A stretch of 64,000 nt of DNA from an uncultured Acholeplasmatales bacterium (GCA_944323055.1 CALUQZ010000005.1:2568-66567); one strand, 5' to 3'; positions 30,784 to 42,348 are shown, numbered from the stretch's first letter. Notes: generated from the sequence alone by a model not told the origin. Program-made: numbers and translations.

Positions 30784-32247
30784 CTACCTACTAAAATCTA
30801 AAGCTGAAACATCTGGTTCCGGATCACCTATATGCATATCACGATAACCATGTCGTTTAAGTCCTATATAAAATATAACAAAAAAGATAATAGATAGCAA
30901 GAAGATTGTACCATTAGAAATTCCCATAGCTATACCAGCTACTCTAGGTCCTGATAAAGTAGGAAAAGCATAATGGAAGATTATAATAGTTAAAATTCTA
31001 ACGCCAATACGAGAGAAATTTAAAATTGAGGCTAAAAAAGTTTTTCCAAAACCATATAACAAACCAAGAACAGCTGAACAAAGGCCTAAAGCTAAGATAG
31101 ATAAAGAATCAAATTCATAAATTTCTTTTATCATATCACTATAGTAAGCGCCCATTTCATCACCACTTGAGTTGAACATACTAACTAAAACATCGATGAA
31201 AACAAACCTTGTTAAAACATAGCCAATAACTGATATTATAATAGCAATAAATGCTAAACGAACAAAGACTTTTAATGGCCTTTTTAAGTTTTTATTACCT
31301 AGGTTTTGACTGACAATTGAAGATTCGCTTTCTTCAAATGTTGTAGTCATACCTGTAACTAAACCAGAAATATTATTAGAGATACCAAGCGCACCAACAA
31401 TTAAATCAAATGTACTAACATTATAGTAATAACCACATAAAGCATTAACAGAAACTTTACCGATGTTCATAACAAACTTACCAAAGAAAATAGGAATTGA
31501 TAAAATTAAAATATCTTTCATGTATGAAGCTTTAGGTTTTAAATCACTTAACGAAACCTTTAAAATATTACTTTTCTTAAAAATTAATATTAACCCAATT
31601 ATTGATAATAAAACTTGACTGATAATTGTAGCAAGTTCTATATAAGCGATATCCTCAACTTTAAAAACATAAACAAATAGCGCTGTTAAGGCAATTTTTA
31701 AACCTAATATTAATAAATTCAAAAACAAAATTAACCGAGAATTTCCTTTAGCTTTTTCTAAACCAATAAAAATAGAATTTATAGAAACAAATACTAATTC
31801 AAATAGTTGCAATCTAAAATAAGTACTGCCAATACTTATTGCGGTTTCACTAATTTGACATAATCTCATAAGAGGTACAGCAAGAGGTAAAAATATTAAT
31901 ATAATTGAAGCACTTAAAATAAGTGATAAAAGTAAAATATTTCCACTAATATGTCTCGCTTCTTTTAAATTGCCTGCTCCATAAAATCTAGCTACTAGAA
32001 CAGCCCCTCCGGAAGCAAGACCAGCTCCAAATGCACTTAAACAATTCTTTAATTGCGCAATTGACCCTACAGCATTACTAGCAGCCGGGGAAATATTTGC
32101 TGTTATTATTTGATCAACAACAGTCGACAAAGAGTTAATAAATTGATATAACGCTATCGGAAAACAGATTATTAAAATAGTTTTCCAAATGTTACCTGAC
32201 AATATTAATTTCCGTCTTTCTATTTGTTTGTTTAATTTACTATCCAT
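30784..32247 (-). CDS. MATE family efflux transporter
   Basis: 487 aa, about 12 TM helices, N-terminal NIWKTILIICFPIALYQFINSL typical of MATE. Confidence 0.85.
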   Translation of the reverse strand: MDSKLNKQIERRKLILSGNIWKTILIICFPIALYQFINSLSTVVDQIITANISPAASNAVGSIAQLKNCLSAFGAGLASGGAVLVARFYGAGNLKEARHISGNILLLSLILSASIILIFLPLAVPLMRLCQISETAISIGSTYFRLQLFELVFVSINSIFIGLEKAKGNSRLILFLNLLILGLKIALTALFVYVFKVEDIAYIELATIISQVLLSIIGLILIFKKSNILKVSLSDLKPKASYMKDILILSIPIFFGKFVMNIGKVSVNALCGYYYNVSTFDLIVGALGISNNISGLVTGMTTTFEESESSIVSQNLGNKNLKRPLKVFVRLAFIAIIISVIGYVLTRFVFIDVLVSMFNSSGDEMGAYYSDMIKEIYEFDSLSILALGLCSAVLGLLYGFGKTFLASILNFSRIGVRILTIIIFHYAFPTLSGPRVAGIAMGISNGTIFLLSIIFFVIFYIGLKRHGYRDMHIGDPEPDVSALDFSR

Positions 32248-32415
32248 ATTATTTCACCGGCTATTATTATAGACTTATTTTTTTTAATTAAAAGGAAAAA
32301 TTTGCACAAAAATATAAAATGAAATAATAAATATTTTTTTCTCTTATTAATTAAGCTTAATACCTAGCTTAAAACACTTTTTTTCAAATATTGTTAACTT
32401 TGTAAAAAAGTATAA

Positions 32416-32896
32416 CTAAAATCTAGAATTGAAATCATTTATTCCATTTTTAAGGTCTTTTTCTTTAACGTTTAATGCTTCTAGAACACTTTTTTGCTTC
32501 GATGTTAGGGCATATTTAGAGACGTAGATATTTTTAGCGTTTTTACTTATTTCTATCTCTTGTAATATTCTTAATGACTTATTTACAGTATAATTTTTTC
32601 TATCAGACTTAATTAATTCTGCTAATCTATTATGTATTTCATTTCTAATAATAGTTGCGATAAACATTATAAAAGTTTTACTTAGAACTGAACTATCACT
32701 ATGAACCCTAAAGGTATCATAGTTTAGTTCAGTTTTTAACATTCTAAACATTTTTTCTATTCCGTCTATCTTTCTATAAAGAGTTAACGCAGTTGATGCT
32801 GTCATTTCTTCAGAACTTATTATACGAAAAGCCTAGGTTCTCTGTCACACTATCTATGTAATCTGCCTTTATTTCATATGATAACAATTCATTTTT
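32416..32896 (-). pseudogene. Remnant of an IS4/IS1634-like DDE transposase (C-terminal about 160 aa only, frameshifted)
   Basis: The 129-aa ORF carries the C-terminal Y-R..IE..FR.LK signature (LYRKIDGIEKMFRMLK). The upstream piece ...YEIKADYIDSVTENLGF is in another frame and ends in a stop. No N-terminal or catalytic D-D region is present. Confidence 0.65.
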
Positions 32897-33139
32897 TCAT
32901 CAAAATTTAATGTAAAATATTTATTATCCAAAACCTCACCAAAAAATAACATATATTTCACTTTAAAAAATAACAGAGCTTATGATATTCTAAAAATTCT
33001 ATCATAATCTTATTACATCTTAAATTATACATATAGCCATCCTTTTTGAATGTAACTTTATATAACTAGAAATTAATAAATTATCATTAAAATAAATAAA
33101 GATATGTCATCAAATATCACTTTTACCTCGTTAATTATG

Positions 33140-34867
33140 TTAATTTTTATATTCATCTATGAACTTGCTTAAATAATCTCTTAAATTATTATTATAAACA
33201 TATACATAACAACCTTTAATTCCTCTAGTCATAATTACTTTATAAGAATTAATTATATATTCTTTTAAAGTTTTATCGTCAATACCAGATGCTACTTTTG
33301 TATCATAAAAATTATTTCTATTAATAATAATTCTATCATTTTTAATATCATAATCTATTTCTTTACCAAAAATAACGCCTATATAATTAAGATCATATCC
33401 TTGTAAAGTATGTATACAACCAATTTCATTTATGGCATTTTTTGAAATGATAAATTCTTTATTTGTCATATTCCATATATATTTATGGTCACAAATATCT
33501 ATGTCATATAATTTTTTACTAACTGCTTCAGCATAAGATTTACAATTTTTTGATATCCACTTCCATGAATAACCGGCTGCCACACGACATAACCCATAAA
33601 CTTTGTCTAATTCTTTAATTCTATTAATCATTTGTTCAACATCTGCAAATAATTTGAAATCATAGTCAATTACAGTTTGTTTTTGTTCAACTTGACAATT
33701 TAAGATGTCTTCAACATAACTTATATAAGTACTACCACCTTCACAACGCATTTGGGTAGTTAAATAATAAGTATATGTGTTATTTATAAATGGATTTATT
33801 GCCATATTAAATTGTTCATCTGTCAAATCAGAACCTTTAACTGTTTGTTTATTATCATAAACTAGTATTTGATATTTAGATGACTTTATAATAAAGTCTA
33901 GTTGTGTTGCAGTCATTGGATCTAAATCTAACTTTTTACATATGTCATCAAAAGAACCATATGCAGTTAAATTTTTTCTACGTAATAAACGATGAGCTTC
34001 ATCGACAATTAAGACATCATAAGTATCTTTTACAACGTCTTGAGGTCCTATAACCATACTAGCGGATAAGCCATTACCTATAGTATGAAAAACTTTTTTC
34101 ATCGTTTGTCTTAAAGATGTCATAGGAACAACAAAGCCTATTTTAATTTTTTTATTTGTTTTGACATATTGTCTTATATCATGAATAATTTTTAGAGCAT
34201 TTGTTAAATCATCTTCATTATCACTATCATCATAATACGTATTTTGAGCAGAAATTATTTTAAAAAGAATATTAATCAAAAGTATTGTTTTACCAGTACC
34301 TACACTACCTTTAATTATAGATAAACCTTGTTTTTTATTCTCTAAACTAAGTAACATGTTAGTAATTATTGAAAAGGCAACCTCACTTTGTTCAGATGTG
34401 AGTGTGTTATATGGTGAATATTTAAATATATCAGAATTCTTGATGTCTTCATAAGATTTATTTGCTAAACCTTTATTTTGTAATTCTTGCCAAATAAAAC
34501 TTATTTTATTAATATAACGTGCTCTTTCATAATAATTATGCTTTTCTGATTGACCACCATTTAAATTTTGTAATTTAAATTTTCCATCTGCACTTGCTAG
34601 TTGAATTAAAGACTGTTCAATATCTAAAATAGCAGATTTATTAAATTCTGAATCAAAAATTATTTCTATCTTTTTTAAATTTTTTCTAGCCTTATTTTTT
34701 AAATGTTGTTCCATTCTATAATAGGCTGAGCTTGTTTCACCTATATACATATCAGTATTATTATGAATTAGATAAACTACAGGCCAATTTTTACCTTTAT
34801 CTGATAAACTTAACTCATTTTTTCCAGAATCCGAAAAATCATATTGCTTAATTAGAAAATTTGCCAT
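33140..34867 (-). CDS. GIY-YIG nuclease domain fused to a DUF2075/Schlafen-group-3-type P-loop helicase-like ATPase
   Basis: N-terminus VVYLIHNNTDMYIGET...YYRMEQH...DIEQS (GIY-YIG/R/E pattern). Walker A GSVGTGKT, DEAH-like IVDEAHRL, QMRCEGG, HTLQGYD and IMTRGIKG motifs. Confidence 0.8.
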   Translation of the reverse strand: MANFLIKQYDFSDSGKNELSLSDKGKNWPVVYLIHNNTDMYIGETSSAYYRMEQHLKNKARKNLKKIEIIFDSEFNKSAILDIEQSLIQLASADGKFKLQNLNGGQSEKHNYYERARYINKISFIWQELQNKGLANKSYEDIKNSDIFKYSPYNTLTSEQSEVAFSIITNMLLSLENKKQGLSIIKGSVGTGKTILLINILFKIISAQNTYYDDSDNEDDLTNALKIIHDIRQYVKTNKKIKIGFVVPMTSLRQTMKKVFHTIGNGLSASMVIGPQDVVKDTYDVLIVDEAHRLLRRKNLTAYGSFDDICKKLDLDPMTATQLDFIIKSSKYQILVYDNKQTVKGSDLTDEQFNMAINPFINNTYTYYLTTQMRCEGGSTYISYVEDILNCQVEQKQTVIDYDFKLFADVEQMINRIKELDKVYGLCRVAAGYSWKWISKNCKSYAEAVSKKLYDIDICDHKYIWNMTNKEFIISKNAINEIGCIHTLQGYDLNYIGVIFGKEIDYDIKNDRIIINRNNFYDTKVASGIDDKTLKEYIINSYKVIMTRGIKGCYVYVYNNNLRDYLSKFIDEYKN

Positions 34868-34888
34868 GTAATCACCACCAATTTAAGA

Positions 34889-36756
34889 TTATTTTATTAA
34901 ACTTTTTAAATATTCATTTAAAGCTTTATCTTCGCAGTAGATATAAGTGCCATATATAGCCCTTGTAAGTAAGACCTTATAGGCATTCCTTATTAGTTTA
35001 TTAGCTAACGCTAAAGATGTCGTCTTACTCCATATGCCACTATTTTTATCATCTTTTAAATGAGATGCTCTATAAGGTATAACTTTACCATTAATATAAC
35101 GTAAATCTTTACCAATTATAACTCCAGCATAATCCATATCTACACCTTGAATAGTGTAAATGGAACCAATTCTATCATTTTCATCTTCATTTAAAATATA
35201 AGGGATTTTCCCACCCATATTCCAACGCATTTTGAATTTATCTTCATCTAAATTAAAATCGTATAATTCTGGATCTTTTTTAGAATTCCAATCATAAGCA
35301 TACCCAGCTAATAATCTTGCAGTTTTATAATTATATTGTTTTTGTTTAATAGCTTTATATAAGTCTGTTGGTGTATCAAAAACTTTAAAATCATAATTTT
35401 TAGGTCTATATTTTTTAACAACACCATTATAACCTAAAACAGAATTAATAAATGAAATATAATCATCGCCACCTAAACATCTAAATTGAGTTGTTAAAGA
35501 TAATTTTCCCCTTCAATAACATCTGAATTGTATTTTTTTGCATACTCGTTAATCTTGTTAATTGTCAATACATCTGAATTAGTTACAACTTGATCTTCAT
35601 CAATAAACCAAACATTTACCCTAGATGCATAAAAAATTTTATCAATTAAATCAACTTCTTTTTTTACACCCATTCCAAATTTCCAAGTGAAGCATCTATG
35701 AGCTTCATCAACTATAATACAATCATAATCAAATTTGCTAGATCTAGCAAAGGTTGCTTCCGCTTTAAATAAATTATCAATAGCAGCTTTTTTTAAATCA
35801 TTTTGTTTTAAATATGCTGCAAATACTGTTTTTAGCGTAAAATTAGGTGTACAATAACACACATTTTTAGGAATACTATTATCACTTGGATGTATTAACT
35901 GCCCCATTGCATTTATCGCTACTACAGATTTACCACATCCAGGACCACCTTTTATAATAATAGTTTTTCTCTTTTGTTGAATTAAAGATTTATTAGTCTC
36001 ATAAATAATAGTTGCTACAGATTCTGCTTGTCCATCATCTAAACTAAAAATTTGATTACCATTAATAGCACCATAAAGCATTTTAGAAAAATCTTTAGAT
36101 GGTCTTATATGCGCATTATCAATGTCATATAGTAAAATTCTTGATGTTTTAGTAACATACTTTTTAACAAGTTCTCTTAATTTATAGGCATCATCTTTAA
36201 GATAGCATGGACTTTCATCTAGAAAACGATACTTAGTTATATCATTAATGTATTTATTATAAATATTATCCATATTGTGGCAATATGAACAACTATTTAT
36301 ATTAACATCATTATTTTGTACATACTCATTAAAAGCACCTAAAATATAGGCATATCTTAAGGCTTGATATGAGGGATGCGGATAATCACTAGGAATACCT
36401 CCACCACCAATAGCATAAATATAATTAGGCTTATTAGAAGCATTAATTTTTGACCATTGTTTTAATTCAACTATGACAATAGAATCTTCATTTAAATCAT
36501 TTTTACCATACATTAAAAAATCAATACGTGTTTTATTAAGTTGTGATTTATATTCAATAGCTACATTCATCTCTTTATTTAAACTATTATCATCTAAAGC
36601 TCTAGCAACAAATGGTAAGGATTCAAGCCAAGACCTTTCTTCATTATGACTAAAAGGAATCATAGCCTTATGCATCTCACAAGCTACTTGATCAGCTATA
36701 ATACCATTATTACATTGAATTATAAAATTTCGCAAACTATTTTCATAAACAATCAT
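34889..36756 (-). pseudogene. PD-(D/E)xK nuclease-like N-terminus plus DUF2075-type P-loop ATPase, split by a 1-nt frameshift
   Basis: The 420-aa N-part has RIDFL...VELKQW, GGPGCGKS and IIVDEAHR, and stops at 35494. The C-part frame opens at 35512 and reads ...LTTQFRCLGGDDY...IYTIQGVDMDY...VLLTRA. Adding one A to the G4A4 run (35504-35511) fuses the two into about 622 aa. Confidence 0.8.
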
Positions 36757-36769
36757 TTATATTACCTGA

Positions 36770-37129
36770 TTAATCAAATTCATTATATTTTTTATTTGAG
36801 CCTTTAGCCTTATTGATAGGATATTTAAGTTCATTTTTAGCCATTTTTTTATAAACTACATCACTTAAATCTATTTTGTTAAGTTCAGCAAATCTAAGAG
36901 TAAAAAGCAAAATATCAGCTATTTCTTCTTCAATTTTGTCTTTATTATTATTTATAAAATTGATAGATTCTTCAGTATTTTTAAATCTAAATAGTTCTAA
37001 TAATTCATTAGCCTCTGTTGAAATTCCAATAGCCAAGTCTTTAGGATTATGAAATTTAGTCCAATCTCTTTCATTACAAAAATCACTATATTTAGCCATT
37101 AATTCATAAATTGTAGTTTTATTATCCAT
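36770..37129 (-). CDS. MazG-like nucleoside triphosphate pyrophosphohydrolase (small all-alpha, DCTPP1/YpjD-like)
   Basis: 119 aa with E-x2-E...E-x2-D metal motif (STEANELLELF ... EEEIADILLF). SD AAAGGAG. Lies 13 nt upstream of the next gene. Confidence 0.8.
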   Translation of the reverse strand: MDNKTTIYELMAKYSDFCNERDWTKFHNPKDLAIGISTEANELLELFRFKNTEESINFINNNKDKIEEEIADILLFTLRFAELNKIDLSDVVYKKMAKNELKYPINKAKGSNKKYNEFD

Positions 37130-37379
37130 TATTTAAACTCCTTTTTTACATTATATTAAAGTATTAAATTATCGCTTTATAACTATAAAATTTACAAGAA
37201 AAAGTAAACATAATCTTCTAAAATACAGTCTCTTTAAATTATTATAATATCATAAAATCGGTATAATATTGGTTCTAAACATTGTTCAAGTTCAATAATT
37301 ATTAAGCATTAGTATTATTAACTTAACTATTTATAAAATCAATTTTTTTAGTTGATAAAGATAAGAAAAACAAAAGGAC

Positions 37380-37490
37380 TTAGTTTTGCCTCAGAATAAC
37401 TTCTATTAATTTATTTTTATATTTATCTATCATTATATTTTGTTTTATATTATTATAAGAAATACCTAAAGTTTTTGAATAAAACCTCAT
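37380..37490 (-). CDS. Candidate 36-aa small ORF (MRFYSKTLGISYNNIKQNIMIDKYKNKLIEVILRQN)
   Basis: Strong SD GAGGAG 6 nt before the ATG. I recognise no homology. It could be a relic. Confidence 0.25.
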   Translation of the reverse strand: MRFYSKTLGISYNNIKQNIMIDKYKNKLIEVILRQN

Positions 37491-37645
37491 AAACAACTCC
37501 TCAAATCTAACTTATATTGATTTTTTTCAACCATACACGTTTATTCTATCATATTTAATAAGATAATTGTAGTTTATTTTATAAAAGAATACGTAGTTAA
37601 CTCAATATTTTATTAATTTAATAAACATTTTATCAAATAATAAAT

Positions 37646-37668
37646 AAAAAGATGCCATAAGACATCTT
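37646..37668 (-). terminator. Terminator after the reductase gene
   Basis: Minus strand AAGATG-TCTTATGG-CATCTT followed by TTTTT. Overlaps the stop codon. Confidence 0.5.
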
Positions 37669-40439: not shown

Positions 40440-42348
40440 GTTACAGTTCAGTCGAAAAAAAGACAAGCGTAAAATAGAGTGAGCTTATTCACCCTGTTTT
40501 ACGCTATTATTTTTATATTAGAGTTGGTTTACCTGAAACTAGTAGTTTAATTTTATCAAATACATTAGCTTTTTGTTTCTTTAACGTTAATATTACACTT
40601 CTGATATTAGCATAATTATTAGCTCCACCTTCACTTCTAAATTTGCCAATTCTTTGTTTAACCTTTAATCCTCGTTGATCAACTTCAGCTTGGTTATTAG
40701 TAGAAGGAACTTTAAAGTCTTTGATAAAATATAATATTTCTTCTTTATGTTTACCCTTCATTCTATCTAATAGGTTTATTTCATTGTCGTAATATTTACT
40801 TTTATTTGACTGCATTTCTTCATTTAGAGCCTTTTGCCAATTATCTAATAATTTGTCATATTGTTCATATATTTCTTTAATGCGACAATCATTATTATTA
40901 TGTATTAATTGGTCTCTTTCCTTATTTATTGACCCTAAATAGTCCATTAATGTTTTAGCTTCAGGACGATTATTTAATTCATATACTCCCTTCAGATACC
41001 TTAATATATGCGACAAACACTGACTAGCTTTACTACCATAATTACTATATAGCGATGCACCATCTTTTATAGTTATACCATTAAAACCAGGTAATATTCC
41101 TATTTCAGCAATGGCTTCAGCACTTTTATGCTTATTTATTGCTAAATATGTATAATCTTTGTTACTACATACTATTTGATTATATCTTTCACCATCAATT
41201 TTAATTTGGGAATCATCGTTGTTAGTATAATAACTCTTCATTAACTTGGCTTTAATAATTTCTAAATCAGTTGTTGCATTTTTAGATAATTCATTTGTCC
41301 AATTAACGATAGTTCCTTTAGATAAATTGATTTTACCATTAGATATGTTACTAATGAATTTAACTACACCATCTGTTGATATATAATTATCAAATTGTAA
41401 TAAAGCTGATATACTTTTAATGTTTTGTCCATAAGTAACAGGATTAAGATTTTTTTGGCAACTATAGTCTCTAAATTCTTTAATTACTAATTTTATTTCT
41501 AAATCTATTTCATATCTAGAGACATACTTTGTACTATCTTTAGTTTTATTCTCTTCAATTATTTTATGTTCAAAAGCTCCTGAGTCAATCATTTTCTTTA
41601 CTTGTTTTATTTTAAGGACGTGCCCTTCGTGTGCTACTTGACCACCTTTTTTCTTATCAGATTTTTCTCGTCTGTTAGTTATAACTTTTTTATATCCATT
41701 AGAACTTGATGGTTTATTTGAGTTATTAGAATCTTTATTTATTTGTTGTTGTAATTTATCGACAACTTTAACTAATTGTTCTATGGTAGCATTTAAACTT
41801 AATATAAGATCATCTTTGTTTTTATTCTCCTCGGCTAAAGCCTTTATTTGTGAAGTCATGATTTCAAGTTGTTTTTGGCTTTTTTCGTAAAATTTTTTTA
41901 AATCATTAAAATGAATATTTAGGTCATCATATTTTTCTAATAATTCTTCATGCTTAGTTAATAATTTACCATAATCTTTATCGTATTGTCTTTGATAATT
42001 TGAAGCCATAATTTCACCTAATTTCTTATTTCTAAACTAATTGTATCAGCTGACTAAAAAATAATCAATCTAGTAAAAGTAGTCAAAAATTAGGTTTAAA
42101 AATAGTCTATTTTTATTAATTTTAAGTCAAAAAATTAATTTTTTCAAAAGTTATCCACCGCGTAACTTTAATTAGCGTTTAAAATGAACTAAAATCATAT
42201 AAAAATAGGAAAAATAGAAAGTTATCCACCTCAAATCGAGAGGCCAAAATTAGAAAAAAAGCTAAAAAAAAGTCTAAGAAAATGCTTTCATTTAATTAGA
42301 CTTGTTTTAAAATGTATTTGATTTCTTTATTTATGACTGAACTGTAAC
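40440..42348 (-). mobile_element. Intact IS66-family insertion sequence (single-ORF type), 1909 bp
   Basis: Perfect 14-bp terminal inverted repeats: GTTACAGTTCAGTC (40440-40453) and GACTGAACTGTAAC (42335-42348). Flanked directly by the 8-bp direct repeat ATTATTAT (40432-40439 and 42349-42356). Confidence 0.8.
40513..42009 (-). CDS. IS66 family transposase
   Basis: 498 aa. N-terminal coiled coil, KKGGQVAHEGHVLK, YGQNIKS...LSKGTIVNW and QCLSHILRYL all follow the IS66 TnpC pattern as I recall it. Confidence 0.7.
   Translation of the reverse strand: MASNYQRQYDKDYGKLLTKHEELLEKYDDLNIHFNDLKKFYEKSQKQLEIMTSQIKALAEENKNKDDLILSLNATIEQLVKVVDKLQQQINKDSNNSNKPSSSNGYKKVITNRREKSDKKKGGQVAHEGHVLKIKQVKKMIDSGAFEHKIIEENKTKDSTKYVSRYEIDLEIKLVIKEFRDYSCQKNLNPVTYGQNIKSISALLQFDNYISTDGVVKFISNISNGKINLSKGTIVNWTNELSKNATTDLEIIKAKLMKSYYTNNDDSQIKIDGERYNQIVCSNKDYTYLAINKHKSAEAIAEIGILPGFNGITIKDGASLYSNYGSKASQCLSHILRYLKGVYELNNRPEAKTLMDYLGSINKERDQLIHNNNDCRIKEIYEQYDKLLDNWQKALNEEMQSNKSKYYDNEINLLDRMKGKHKEEILYFIKDFKVPSTNNQAEVDQRGLKVKQRIGKFRSEGGANNYANIRSVILTLKKQKANVFDKIKLLVSGKPTLI

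Follow-up and report, generated by a model that had tools for sequence, protein, structure and literature searches.

The window, a stretch of 64,000 nucleotides from an uncultured Acholeplasmatales bacterium, contains three genes that ORF calling places on the minus strand in the order MazG-like gene, gene 2 and gene 3. They lie with the following features.

36770..37129, minus strand: MazG-like gene, 119 aa, intact
34889..36756, minus strand: gene 2, PD-(D/E)xK-headed DUF2075/SF1B-like ATPase; pseudogene, 622 aa when repaired
35494..36756, minus strand: N-terminal piece of gene 2, 420 aa, ending in TAA; the other frame continues to 34889
35504..35507, minus strand: A4 run short of one A (frameshift) that inactivates gene 2; sequence identical in contigs L001-L004
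33140..34867, minus strand: gene 3, GIY-YIG-headed DUF2075/SF1B-like ATPase, 575 aa, intact
37649..37668, minus strand: terminator-like hairpin, 3' of the upstream oxidoreductase gene
32391..37664, strand not applicable: strain-variable slot of 5.3 kb, flanked by a MatE gene and a Fer2/FAD oxidoreductase gene
32416..32805, minus strand: 129-aa ORF, probable C-terminal remnant of an IS4-like transposase (motif Y-x6-IE-x2-F-x2-LK read from the sequence)

This layout agrees exactly with the original prediction of three co-directional genes separated by 13 nt (36757-36769, MazG-like gene to gene 2) and 21 nt (34868-34888, gene 2 to gene 3). Sequences resembling a Shine-Dalgarno site precede the MazG-like gene (AAGGAG) and gene 3 (GGTGGTGA); gene 2 is preceded by a weak AGGT only. 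No terminator-like hairpins were found between the three genes, and the hairpin at 37649..37668 marks the upstream limit of the operon.

Judged from its sequence, the product of the first gene is a MazG-like or DCTPP1-like all-alpha NTP pyrophosphohydrolase, as had been proposed. It matches PF12643 (9.1e-13, 48.7 bits; cut-off 27) and PF03819 (6.8e-07, 29.9 bits; cut-off 22) in Pfam, and 4qgp (2e-20) and DCTPP1/RS21-C6 (1.1e-16) in the PDB. The metal-binding E-x2-E...E-x2-D motif is present as E39, E42, E69 and D72, which align with E63, E66, E95 and D98 of DCTPP1 and are kept in at least 97% of the MazGs linked to DUF2075 genes (n=88). The linked MazGs retain this ExxE...ExxD motif together with the DCTPP1-type W/W/Y pocket positions, and the window protein has Phe (F49/F76) at two pocket positions that are Trp or Tyr in 93-94% of them.

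Gene 2 is a pseudogene in this genome. The frameshift in the A-run is followed by a premature TAA at 35494-35496, and restoring the lost A yields a protein of 622 aa (...GEKLSLTTQFRC...) that aligns end to end with homologues of ~620 aa (best identity 65%; 2449 homologues at E<=1e-10). Four independent metagenome contigs (L001-L004) share this 1-nt deletion, so the frameshift is genuine, as opposed to an error of sequencing; it is present in 5/5 sequences seen for this species. In the sister strain L174 it is further disrupted, with two more genes inserted in it, and yet MazG is intact and gene 3 persists. What can still work in this genome is therefore the MazG together with the GIY-YIG protein. 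The N-terminal and C-terminal pieces of gene 2 both match PF09848 (9.7e-21 and 8.2e-26, respectively), and the N-terminal piece gives a NERD match below the cut-off (0.008). The expected motifs RIDFL/VELKQW, GGPGCGKS, VDEAHR, TQFRC, TIQG and LLTRA are present, with their key residues, including E68, R77, D79, E97 and K99, invariant in the family alignment (A1). An AF2 model of the repaired protein (pLDDT 87, pTM 0.89) places D79 and E97/K99 on beta-strands, with E68, D79 and E97-x-K99 on consecutive strands, and its top Foldseek matches are SLFN11, RecD, RecD2 and Upf1. The predicted PD-(D/E)xK head and DUF2075 body of about 622 aa thus hold as regards domains and motifs, but the protein is encoded only after repair of the frameshift.

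Gene 3 was predicted to join the same ATPase body to a GIY-YIG head, and both parts are matched in Pfam (PF09848, 1.5e-61; PF01541, 4.6e-05, 24.1 bits against a cut-off of 22.6); the head also matches the PADLOC PDC-S14 head model (1.1e-10). The motifs VVYLI and YIGET are present, and the key residues (Y32, Y41, G43, R51, H55, E84 and N101), as well as Walker A/B, QMRC and TLQG, are invariant in the family alignment (A2), with 5643 homologues found at E<=1e-10. Foldseek with the AF2 model (pLDDT 83.5) returned Upf1, RecD2, nsp13, SLFN11 and Dda. Structure prediction, which had been suggested as a check on the DUF2075 proteins, thus models both effectors as SF1B helicases.

The genomic setting was examined by blastn against the conspecific contig L173, where ~99% identity stops at 32390 and restarts at 37665. 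In other strains, on contigs with an identical MatE protein, exactly the same slot contains DpnII R-M, type I R-M, AbiU2 or GmrSD, in keeping with the accessory island originally proposed, and since conspecifics hold restriction systems or AbiU2 there we regard the slot as a defence hotspot. The further claim that the island is bracketed by IS elements holds only loosely: the IS4-like remnant lies inside the slot, but the IS66 transposase (40513..42009) lies ~3 kb past the other slot boundary, with two backbone oxidoreductase genes between. The 129-aa ORF read as this remnant has no Pfam match, and in L174 an rve fragment takes its place.

A survey of the kind first suggested for the three genes shows that adjacency of MazG and DUF2075 genes recurs. 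Adjacency was scored as a MazG-like gene <=300 nt away, counting only loci with enough flank, in samples of genome loci for the gene-2 family (n=68) and metagenome loci for the gene-3 family (n=72). A MazG-like gene lies beside the PD-(D/E)xK-headed DUF2075 gene in 40/68 loci and beside the GIY-YIG-headed one in 55/72, together 95 pairs in ~140 loci. The linked MazG is nearly always on the same strand, at gaps mostly of -4 to +20 nt and often overlapping, and its distances correlate with those of its partner (r=0.68; 0/500 permutations). Viewed in reverse, a DUF2075 gene adjoins 6/7 sampled MazG homologues. The pair occurs, among other taxa, in Acholeplasmatales, Bacilli, Lachnospiraceae, Veillonellaceae, Micromonospora, Nanopelagicaceae, Cryomorphaceae and Rubrivirga, also on Bacillus cereus/thuringiensis megaplasmids, and copies are found next to integrases or MobL. 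Among the nearest neighbours of 34 other loci are the defence genes Cas9, MkoA, Uzume, type IV REases, PDC-S04/S07 and mad2, with no conserved third gene near these 34 loci; no MazG-DUF2075 fusion protein was found among the best 120 matches of each homologue search. What is conserved is the pair of a MazG and a single DUF2075 nuclease, whichever its head, and not the triplet. That the two adjoin each other in over half of ~140 loci across phyla supports a genuine link in function between them. MazG is missing at ~40% of the loci in the gene-2 family and at ~25% in the gene-3 family, and no substitute hydrolase was found next door to these; because so many family members do without it, MazG appears to be an accessory and no essential partner.

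The core pair, besides being widespread, has previously been listed as a candidate, so that the operon cannot be called undescribed as the original prediction had it. Table S2 of Millman et al. 2022 (bioRxiv 10.1101/2022.05.11.491447) contains the same pair as the tested candidate 'Pyrophosphatase', which does not appear in the main-text discussion; no defence was observed ('x') for SG192 from Bacillus firmus LK28, and SG193 from B. thuringiensis Lr3/2 is marked 'Cloning failed'. That table has no entry in which MazG is paired with the GIY-YIG family. Nuclease-helicases of the general type of genes 2 and 3 are, as first noted, known to act against phages: Nhi (S. epidermidis SERP2475; Bari et al.) and Nhi-like (B. 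cereus FSL H8-0482, SG141; Millman et al. 2022) are validated defence proteins that act alone, and PF09848 proteins serve as a defence marker. Since both work without a partner, MazG is dispensable for at least some relatives.

The slot very probably contains an anti-phage cassette. Our preferred reading, to which we give a probability of roughly 55%, is a small cassette of this sort in a chromosomal defence hotspot, with a DCTPP1-like MazG and a nuclease-helicase as its core and the MazG as an accessory that hydrolyses dNTPs. The cassette is a kind of Nhi-like nuclease-helicase system, in which two nuclease-helicases follow one MazG, the PD-(D/E)xK one dead and the GIY-YIG one intact. The DUF2075 protein would act like Nhi and Nhi-like: powered by ATP, it would translocate or unwind and so bring its nuclease to phage DNA or replication intermediates, and the MazG would hydrolyse dNTPs to dNMP and PPi. 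Given the DCTPP1-like pocket of the MazG, dCTP or phage-made dCTP/dNTPs with modified bases are its likeliest substrates; the phage would then be denied modified or sufficient precursors, and its DNA would stay a substrate for the nuclease. A role in defence is supported by the independent choice of the pair as a defence candidate by the Sorek laboratory, and is opposed by SG192, the sole homologous pair tested, having given no observed defence, with SG193 uncloned. Also weighing against the preferred reading are the loci without a MazG, the absence of fusion proteins among the best 120 matches, the lack of a PADLOC model for this MazG and the atypical F49/F76 of the window protein.

Several other explanations bear on the same evidence. 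Unrelated genes do become juxtaposed in defence islands, and single DUF2075 proteins such as Nhi and Nhi-like suffice for defence, so a house-keeping MazG might simply have come to lie beside two independent single-gene defence genes. The adjacency statistics effectively refute this, as the 95 adjacent pairs compare with ~0.2 expected by our own estimate, which assumes one or two randomly placed copies of the gene in each genome, and as the sampled MazG homologues are themselves mostly DUF2075-linked. An obligate three-component system, with MazG and two differently armed DUF2075 proteins acting together, was the version originally put forward. In its favour, MazG with two DUF2075 paralogues in one operon recurs in ~8 lineages among ~165 loci (L014, L062, L088/L090/L091, L118, L134/L153/L158, L160 and L195), and GIY-YIG and PD-(D/E)xK heads came together on two or more separate occasions, involving distinct PD-(D/E)xK lineages: that of gene 2 in the window and the PDC-S41/Nhi-like one in L118, L134 and L160. 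The arrangement therefore recurs as a minority form but is not obligate: most loci have a single DUF2075 gene, gene 2 is frameshifted in all five sequences seen for this species with MazG and gene 3 left intact, and in the other loci of gene-2 plus gene-3 composition (L021 and L161) it is the GIY-YIG gene that is fragmented, all of which makes obligate joint action improbable. Slightly less credible still is a DNA-maintenance module in which MazG would sanitise non-canonical dNTPs and the nuclease-helicase would remove misincorporated bases or process stalled forks. House-cleaning is the classic function of DCTPP1 and MazG proteins, and SF1B helicase-nucleases such as DNA2 and RecD work in repair, but presence here varies by strain in a slot otherwise given to R-M or Abi, distribution is patchy across phyla with megaplasmid copies and neighbouring integrases or MobL, pseudogenisation is frequent, and the neighbourhoods are rich in defence genes.

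The remaining alternatives retain a role in defence and differ in what they ask of MazG. By analogy with E. coli mazG, it might be a safety device or regulator that continually hydrolyses a nucleotide activating or fueling the effector, for example an alarmone, a phage-induced nucleotide or a dNTP, and so restrains a toxic effector up to the point where infection swamps or inhibits the MazG. The tight, often overlapping operonic coupling would suit such a role, as would the constant ATPase body that MazG accompanies whichever the nuclease head, and its survival in L174 beside a persisting gene 3 although gene 2 is destroyed; the cloning failure of SG193 is compatible with toxicity. We nevertheless consider it rather unlikely, as many DUF2075 nucleases of both families lack any MazG, the validated Nhi and Nhi-like are single proteins, and the pocket resembles that of the dNTP house-cleaner DCTPP1 rather than that of an alarmone hydrolase. 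It is possible, though we put it forward tentatively, that MazG and DUF2075 form a genuine and very widespread two-component anti-phage system with an interchangeable PD-(D/E)xK or GIY-YIG head, in which MazG might degrade modified dNTPs produced by the phage or control the effector by way of a nucleotide. Were it true, the published negative result would come down to an unsuitable choice of phages or host, and the pair would hint at an old connection in function between DCTPP1 and the SLFN11-type helicases, two families that persist in humans.

Among known systems, the Schlafen group-3 proteins SLFN11 and SLFN14 also have their C-terminal helicase domain in PF09848, are among the top Foldseek matches and have an antiviral or stress-linked nuclease role that parallels the one proposed for the effectors here; they differ in their N-terminal nuclease, the SLFN core acting on tRNA/rRNA, and their genes have no linked MazG because eukaryotic genes are not in operons. 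E. coli mazEFG likewise places a MazG-family pyrophosphohydrolase in one operon with a growth-arresting nuclease. There, MazG has two domains, acts on (p)ppGpp/NTPs and modulates, via (p)ppGpp, the toxicity of the mRNA interferase MazF, an effector without homology to the DUF2075 proteins. DCTPP1/RS21-C6 and the archaeal pyrophosphatase 4qgp share the fold family and ExxE...ExxD with the window MazG, and the 'ERDW.QFH' substrate region can be aligned, but DCTPP1 has W/Y where the window protein has F49/F76, and the linked MazGs are bacterial proteins of ~110-120 aa dedicated to a DUF2075 partner.

Among defence proteins, PADLOC has no model for the window MazG and gives only weak partial matches for both effectors. 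PDC-S41, defined as a single-gene candidate, is a DUF2075 protein whose PD-(D/E)xK head is homologous to that of gene 2 (E..R.D...ExK shared), and true members occur within MazG plus GIY-YIG-DUF2075 operons (L118, L134, L153, L158 and L160). Neither effector gives a full-length match to its model (PDLC05014): repaired gene 2 reaches 54 bits, spread over two short stretches, and gene 3 reaches 29 bits, compared with 803-883 for members. Nhi and Nhi-like share with genes 2 and 3 the architecture of an N-terminal nuclease and a DUF2075/SF1B helicase, the same predicted structural relatives (Upf1, Dda, RecD2 and SLFN), and the combination of a nuclease head with intact catalytic residues and a C-terminal PF09848 ATPase with Walker A/B. 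Membership by sequence was rejected, the relationship being a distant one: repaired gene 2 matches the PADLOC Nhi model over the P-loop/ATPase core only (30 bits, E 4e-08) and Nhi-like SG141 at 24% identity over 174 aa by BLASTP, and gene 3 does not match the Nhi model. They also have no MazG partner, and a PD-(D/E)xK head where gene 3 has GIY-YIG. The closest counterpart is the 'Pyrophosphatase' candidate of Millman et al., which shares with the window the module of a MazG-like protein of ~100 aa and a PD-(D/E)xK-headed DUF2075 protein of ~620-640 aa. Identity between the window MazG and the SG192 pyrophosphatase is 51% (E 1e-32), and repaired gene 2 aligns collinearly with its SG192 counterpart, starting at residue 1, with 33% identity over 407 aa (E 7e-70). 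The candidate comprises a single DUF2075 gene, whereas the window has added a GIY-YIG-headed paralogue and lost the PD-(D/E)xK-headed one.

The three genes occupy the minus-strand positions of the original prediction, as the ORF layout bears out, and are separated by 13 nt and 21 nt:

36770..37129, minus strand: MazG-like gene, 119 aa (Pfam)
36756 to 34889, minus strand: gene 2, PD-(D/E)xK-headed DUF2075 gene, a 420-aa ORF (35494..36756) with the remainder in another frame
33140..34867, minus strand: gene 3, GIY-YIG-headed DUF2075 gene, 575 aa (Pfam)

The domains proposed for all three genes are each supported by Pfam search. The MazG-like protein matches PF12643 (9.1e-13) and PF03819 (MazG, 6.8e-07), while PF09848 (SLFN-g3_helicase/DUF2075) matches the two pieces of gene 2 (9.7e-21 and 8.2e-26) and gene 3 (1.5e-61); the head of gene 3 passes the GIY-YIG cut-off narrowly (PF01541, 4.6e-05) and that of gene 2 falls under the cut-off for NERD (0.008). 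An NCBIfam search returned no family-level match for the three proteins. PADLOC has no model for the MazG and matches both effectors only weakly and in part, so the locus fits no existing PADLOC system.

The catalytic residues are established in all three proteins. The closest structures to the MazG are an archaeal pyrophosphatase (4qgp, 2e-20) and DCTPP1/RS21-C6 (1.1e-16), and its residues E39, E42, E69 and D72 align to the DCTPP1 metal ligands. In gene 2, E68, R77, D79 and E97-L-K99 do not vary across 25 aligned relatives, and the AlphaFold model (pLDDT 87, pTM 0.89) places these head residues on successive beta-strands, as in a PD-(D/E)xK nuclease. Among 23 relatives of gene 3, the GIY-YIG residues Y32, Y41, G43, R51, H55, E84 and N101 and every ATPase motif are invariant. 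A PDB sequence search with genes 2 and 3 gave nothing useful, and their placement among SF1B helicases comes from fold comparison only, both bodies resembling Upf1, RecD/RecD2, nsp13, Sen1, Dda, SLFN11 and SLFN14.

Gene 2 is broken by the loss of one A from the run at 35504-35507. Restoring this nucleotide gives a 622-aa protein, which aligns full length with homologues of ~620 aa and has 2449 matches at E<=1e-10 (best 65% identity). The identical frameshift occurs in four independent metagenome assemblies (L001-L004), which rules out sequencing error and identifies a real, fixed lesion. Programmed frameshifting and phase variation were considered and rejected: the A run is only 4 long, no in-frame X_XXY_YYZ slippery site was seen when the sequence was inspected by eye, and the downstream frame offers no start codon until 35230, so that the TQFRC motif would be lost. 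Both are also opposed by a 2.2-kb insertion (L174 3410-5652) within gene 2 of the sister strain L174, at window ~35933. This insertion carries a 304-aa gene without a family match and a DUF3644 gene that is the PADLOC candidate PDC-S19 (E 2.5e-135), one candidate defence gene sitting within another; despite it, the MazG and gene 3 of L174 remain intact. The PD-(D/E)xK paralogue is decaying in this species. Upstream of the MazG, toward the oxidoreductase gene, lies a minus-strand 36-aa ORF (MRFYSKTLGISYNN..., window 37380-37490) with a GGAG-type ribosome-binding site; gene calls include it in L001, L002 and L174, and it travels with the cassette. A promoter scan gives little information in DNA this AT-rich, with 62 sites against 49±8 expected.

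The pairing of MazG with DUF2075 was surveyed in 80 genome loci around relatives of gene 2 and 80 metagenome loci around relatives of gene 3, whose ORFs were searched with purpose-built profiles, adjacency being defined as a MazG-like gene <=300 nt from the DUF2075 gene. Where the flank sufficed, such a gene was found in 40 of 68 gene-2-family loci and 55 of 72 gene-3-family loci. It nearly always shares the strand of the DUF2075 gene, lying upstream of it in 66 loci and downstream of it in 26, with gaps mostly of -4 to +20 nt. These adjacency statistics exclude chance, and when MazG homologues were sampled instead, six of seven adjoined a DUF2075 gene. Adjacency in both families together with the reverse sampling identifies, at the level of sequence comparison, the pair of a MazG and one DUF2075 nuclease with either nuclease head as the conserved unit, and makes a strong case for a comparative-genomic link that is essentially unpublished. 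Among the carriers of this conserved operonic pairing are Acholeplasmatales, Bacilli, Lachnospiraceae, Veillonellaceae, Anaerofilum, Micromonospora, Nanopelagicaceae, Cryomorphaceae and Rubrivirga, and also Bacillus cereus/thuringiensis megaplasmids, where the genes are annotated 'nucleotide pyrophosphohydrolase' and 'DUF2075 domain-containing protein'. The divergence of MazG and partner is correlated (r=0.68, 0/500 permutations, Mantel-type), which partly reflects shared species phylogeny and lends weak support to a functional link.

Of 88 distinct linked MazG sequences, at least 93% retain the catalytic ExxE...ExxD together with the aromatic pocket positions of DCTPP1 type. The window MazG itself has F49 and F76, at positions where 93-94% of the MazGs linked to DUF2075 carry Trp and Tyr (W73 and Y102 in DCTPP1), and its substrate pocket may differ slightly from theirs. 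MazG is facultative, being missing from ~40% of gene-2-family and ~25% of gene-3-family loci. Beside these MazG-less members we found no substitute nucleotide hydrolase, the neighbours being a histidine kinase, an ion channel, PARG and hypotheticals, and no MazG-DUF2075 fusion ('Rosetta stone' evidence) occurred in the top 120 matches of three homologue searches.

Several relatives depart from this plan. Four gene-2 homologues of ~780-820 aa (P0082, P0084, P0092, P0104) carry an extra Peptidase_S24 domain (LexA/UmuD-like, PF00717), which hints at control by RecA/DNA damage via self-cleavage. In MazG-less gene-3 relatives from the human gut (L124, L126, L127, L132, L144), the GIY-YIG-DUF2075 gene overlaps (-4) a downstream 688-aa hybrid histidine kinase/response regulator with a SnoaL-like domain, an unexpected operon partner. 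In a Sphaerochaeta MAG, the start of the gene-2 homologue lies within a 4-nt overlap with a microbial PARG-like gene (PF10021, 2.7e-28; L069 7033-8004). Full-length gene-2-family homologues without an adjacent MazG are also present in two archaeal MAGs (L066 and L070; Methanomicrobiales, 39% identity, and Methanomassiliicoccales, 29%), a distribution that points to inter-domain transfer.

The triplet of the original prediction does recur, in that a MazG and two DUF2075 paralogues share one operon in ~8 lineages (L014, L062, L088/L090/L091, L118, L134/L153/L158, L160, L195), but it is a minority arrangement of which the pair is the conserved core. The GIY-YIG proteins of L118, L134, L153, L158 and L160 are each paired with a full-length PADLOC PDC-S41 (E 2.5e-266), whose head is homologous to that of gene 2 and which shares 26% identity with the validated Nhi-like protein across 430 aa. 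Because this PD-(D/E)xK partner is a different one, the combination of MazG with GIY-YIG-armed and PD-(D/E)xK-armed DUF2075 proteins has arisen more than once. The GIY-YIG gene is fragmented in the other loci with both gene 2 and gene 3 (L021 552-2320, L161 6099-7901), and one gene-2-type paralogue of L014 (5470-7355) is split into 180 + 442 aa. Four two-paralogue loci (window 34889-36756, L014, L021, L161) thus hold a split or fragmented paralogue, in what looks like redundant-copy decay; redundancy fits this pattern better than obligate partnership.

The MatE protein (window 30784..32247) is identical on conspecific contigs, which carry other cargo in exactly the same slot (boundaries at window 32390 and 37665, blastn):

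L173, L176: DpnII-type R-M system
L175: AbiU2, type I HsdR and DpnII
L177: GmrSD and an unknown four-gene cluster
L178-L180: type I R-M, DUF2971 and DpnII

The slot is a classic strain-variable defence hotspot, which bears out the earlier view of an accessory island suited to a defence role. The window captures cassette turnover, with R-M, Abi and DUF2075 cassettes swapped between strains and one paralogous effector decaying. In L177 (2451-8779) GmrSD stands with two methyltransferases and the unannotated cluster, which encodes 836-aa (weak Sigma70_r4 match), 646-aa, 305-aa and 248-aa DUF6339 proteins and may be a further defence system. Beyond the slot, the iPGM gene is separated from the oxidoreductase pair by an IS66-family insertion (window 40440-42348; transposase ORF 40513..42009, minus strand, PF03050 1.4e-22). 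L173 lacks this element and its flanks run on without a break, so the insertion is strain-specific.

Among the two closest genes on either flank of 34 other loci we found Cas9, MkoA, UzuA, type IV and type II methyl-directed REases, PDC-S04/S07, mad2, Fic, Gp49 and Mrr/HNH nucleases, and no conserved third gene beside the pair. Individual contexts are in agreement (type ISP R-M with Cas9; SLFN_AlbA_2 with UvrD; KAP NTPase, AAA_15/21, Abi_2, integrases and MobL). Megablast of the operon against PLSDB plasmids and GenBank phages gave no match, and a phage origin was rejected, there being only 9 matches among 2.9 million viral contigs, some of these at the ends of contigs. A role of the module in DNA repair is unlikely given this variable, mobile and defence-rich context.

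By analogy with Nhi, the SF1B motor of the DUF2075 protein would direct its nuclease onto phage DNA or onto replication intermediates, while the MazG, by analogy with DCTPP1, would hydrolyse dNTPs, probably dCTP or base-modified dNTPs, and so either starve the phage or keep its DNA from acquiring a modification that makes the nuclease less effective. If the MazG matters, a nucleotide-pool arm would be joined to a nucleic-acid-cutting defence, and the failure of the sole construct tested so far would be explained. In mazEFG, mazG has a safety-catch or regulatory role, and the main rival assigns the MazG a similar one here; we consider this rather improbable, with the failed cloning of SG193, a published construct of the same two gene types, being what it would fit.

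In the searchable literature DUF2075 is mentioned by only ten papers, and we found none there in which MazG appears together with either DUF2075 or Nhi. The operon had been predicted to be undescribed, yet its core pair is already a tested candidate, named 'Pyrophosphatase', in Table S2 of Millman et al. 2022 (bioRxiv 10.1101/2022.05.11.491447). There SG192 (B. firmus LK28; pyrophosphatase 98 aa and DUF2075 643 aa) has observed defence 'x', and SG193 (B. thuringiensis Lr3/2; DUF2075 619 aa and pyrophosphatase 108 aa) is entered as 'Cloning failed'. Compared with SG192, the window MazG shares 51% identity with the pyrophosphatase, and repaired gene 2 shares 33% with the DUF2075 protein over 407 collinear residues, so the pair is a known, unvalidated candidate with one negative test. 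What appears to be new here is the equally strong MazG linkage of the GIY-YIG family, the two-effector variants and the hotspot evidence. DUF2075/Schlafen-like nuclease-helicases are an abundant, little-studied defence family, with thousands of homologues here, and over half of two large subfamilies have a dedicated DCTPP1-like pyrophosphatase adjoining, a link that surfaces in the searchable literature only in one unvalidated line of a supplementary table.

The original observation is thus confirmed and its interpretation supported in part. In sequence, gene 2 shows no more than marginal similarity to the validated Nhi-like SG141 or the PADLOC Nhi model, and the structural relatives reported for Nhi are the same set as those of the bodies of genes 2 and 3. 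The locus is best read as a variant within the Nhi-like nuclease-helicase kind, putatively MazG-assisted and partly degenerate, in which a GIY-YIG-headed effector stands beside a dead PD-(D/E)xK paralogue.
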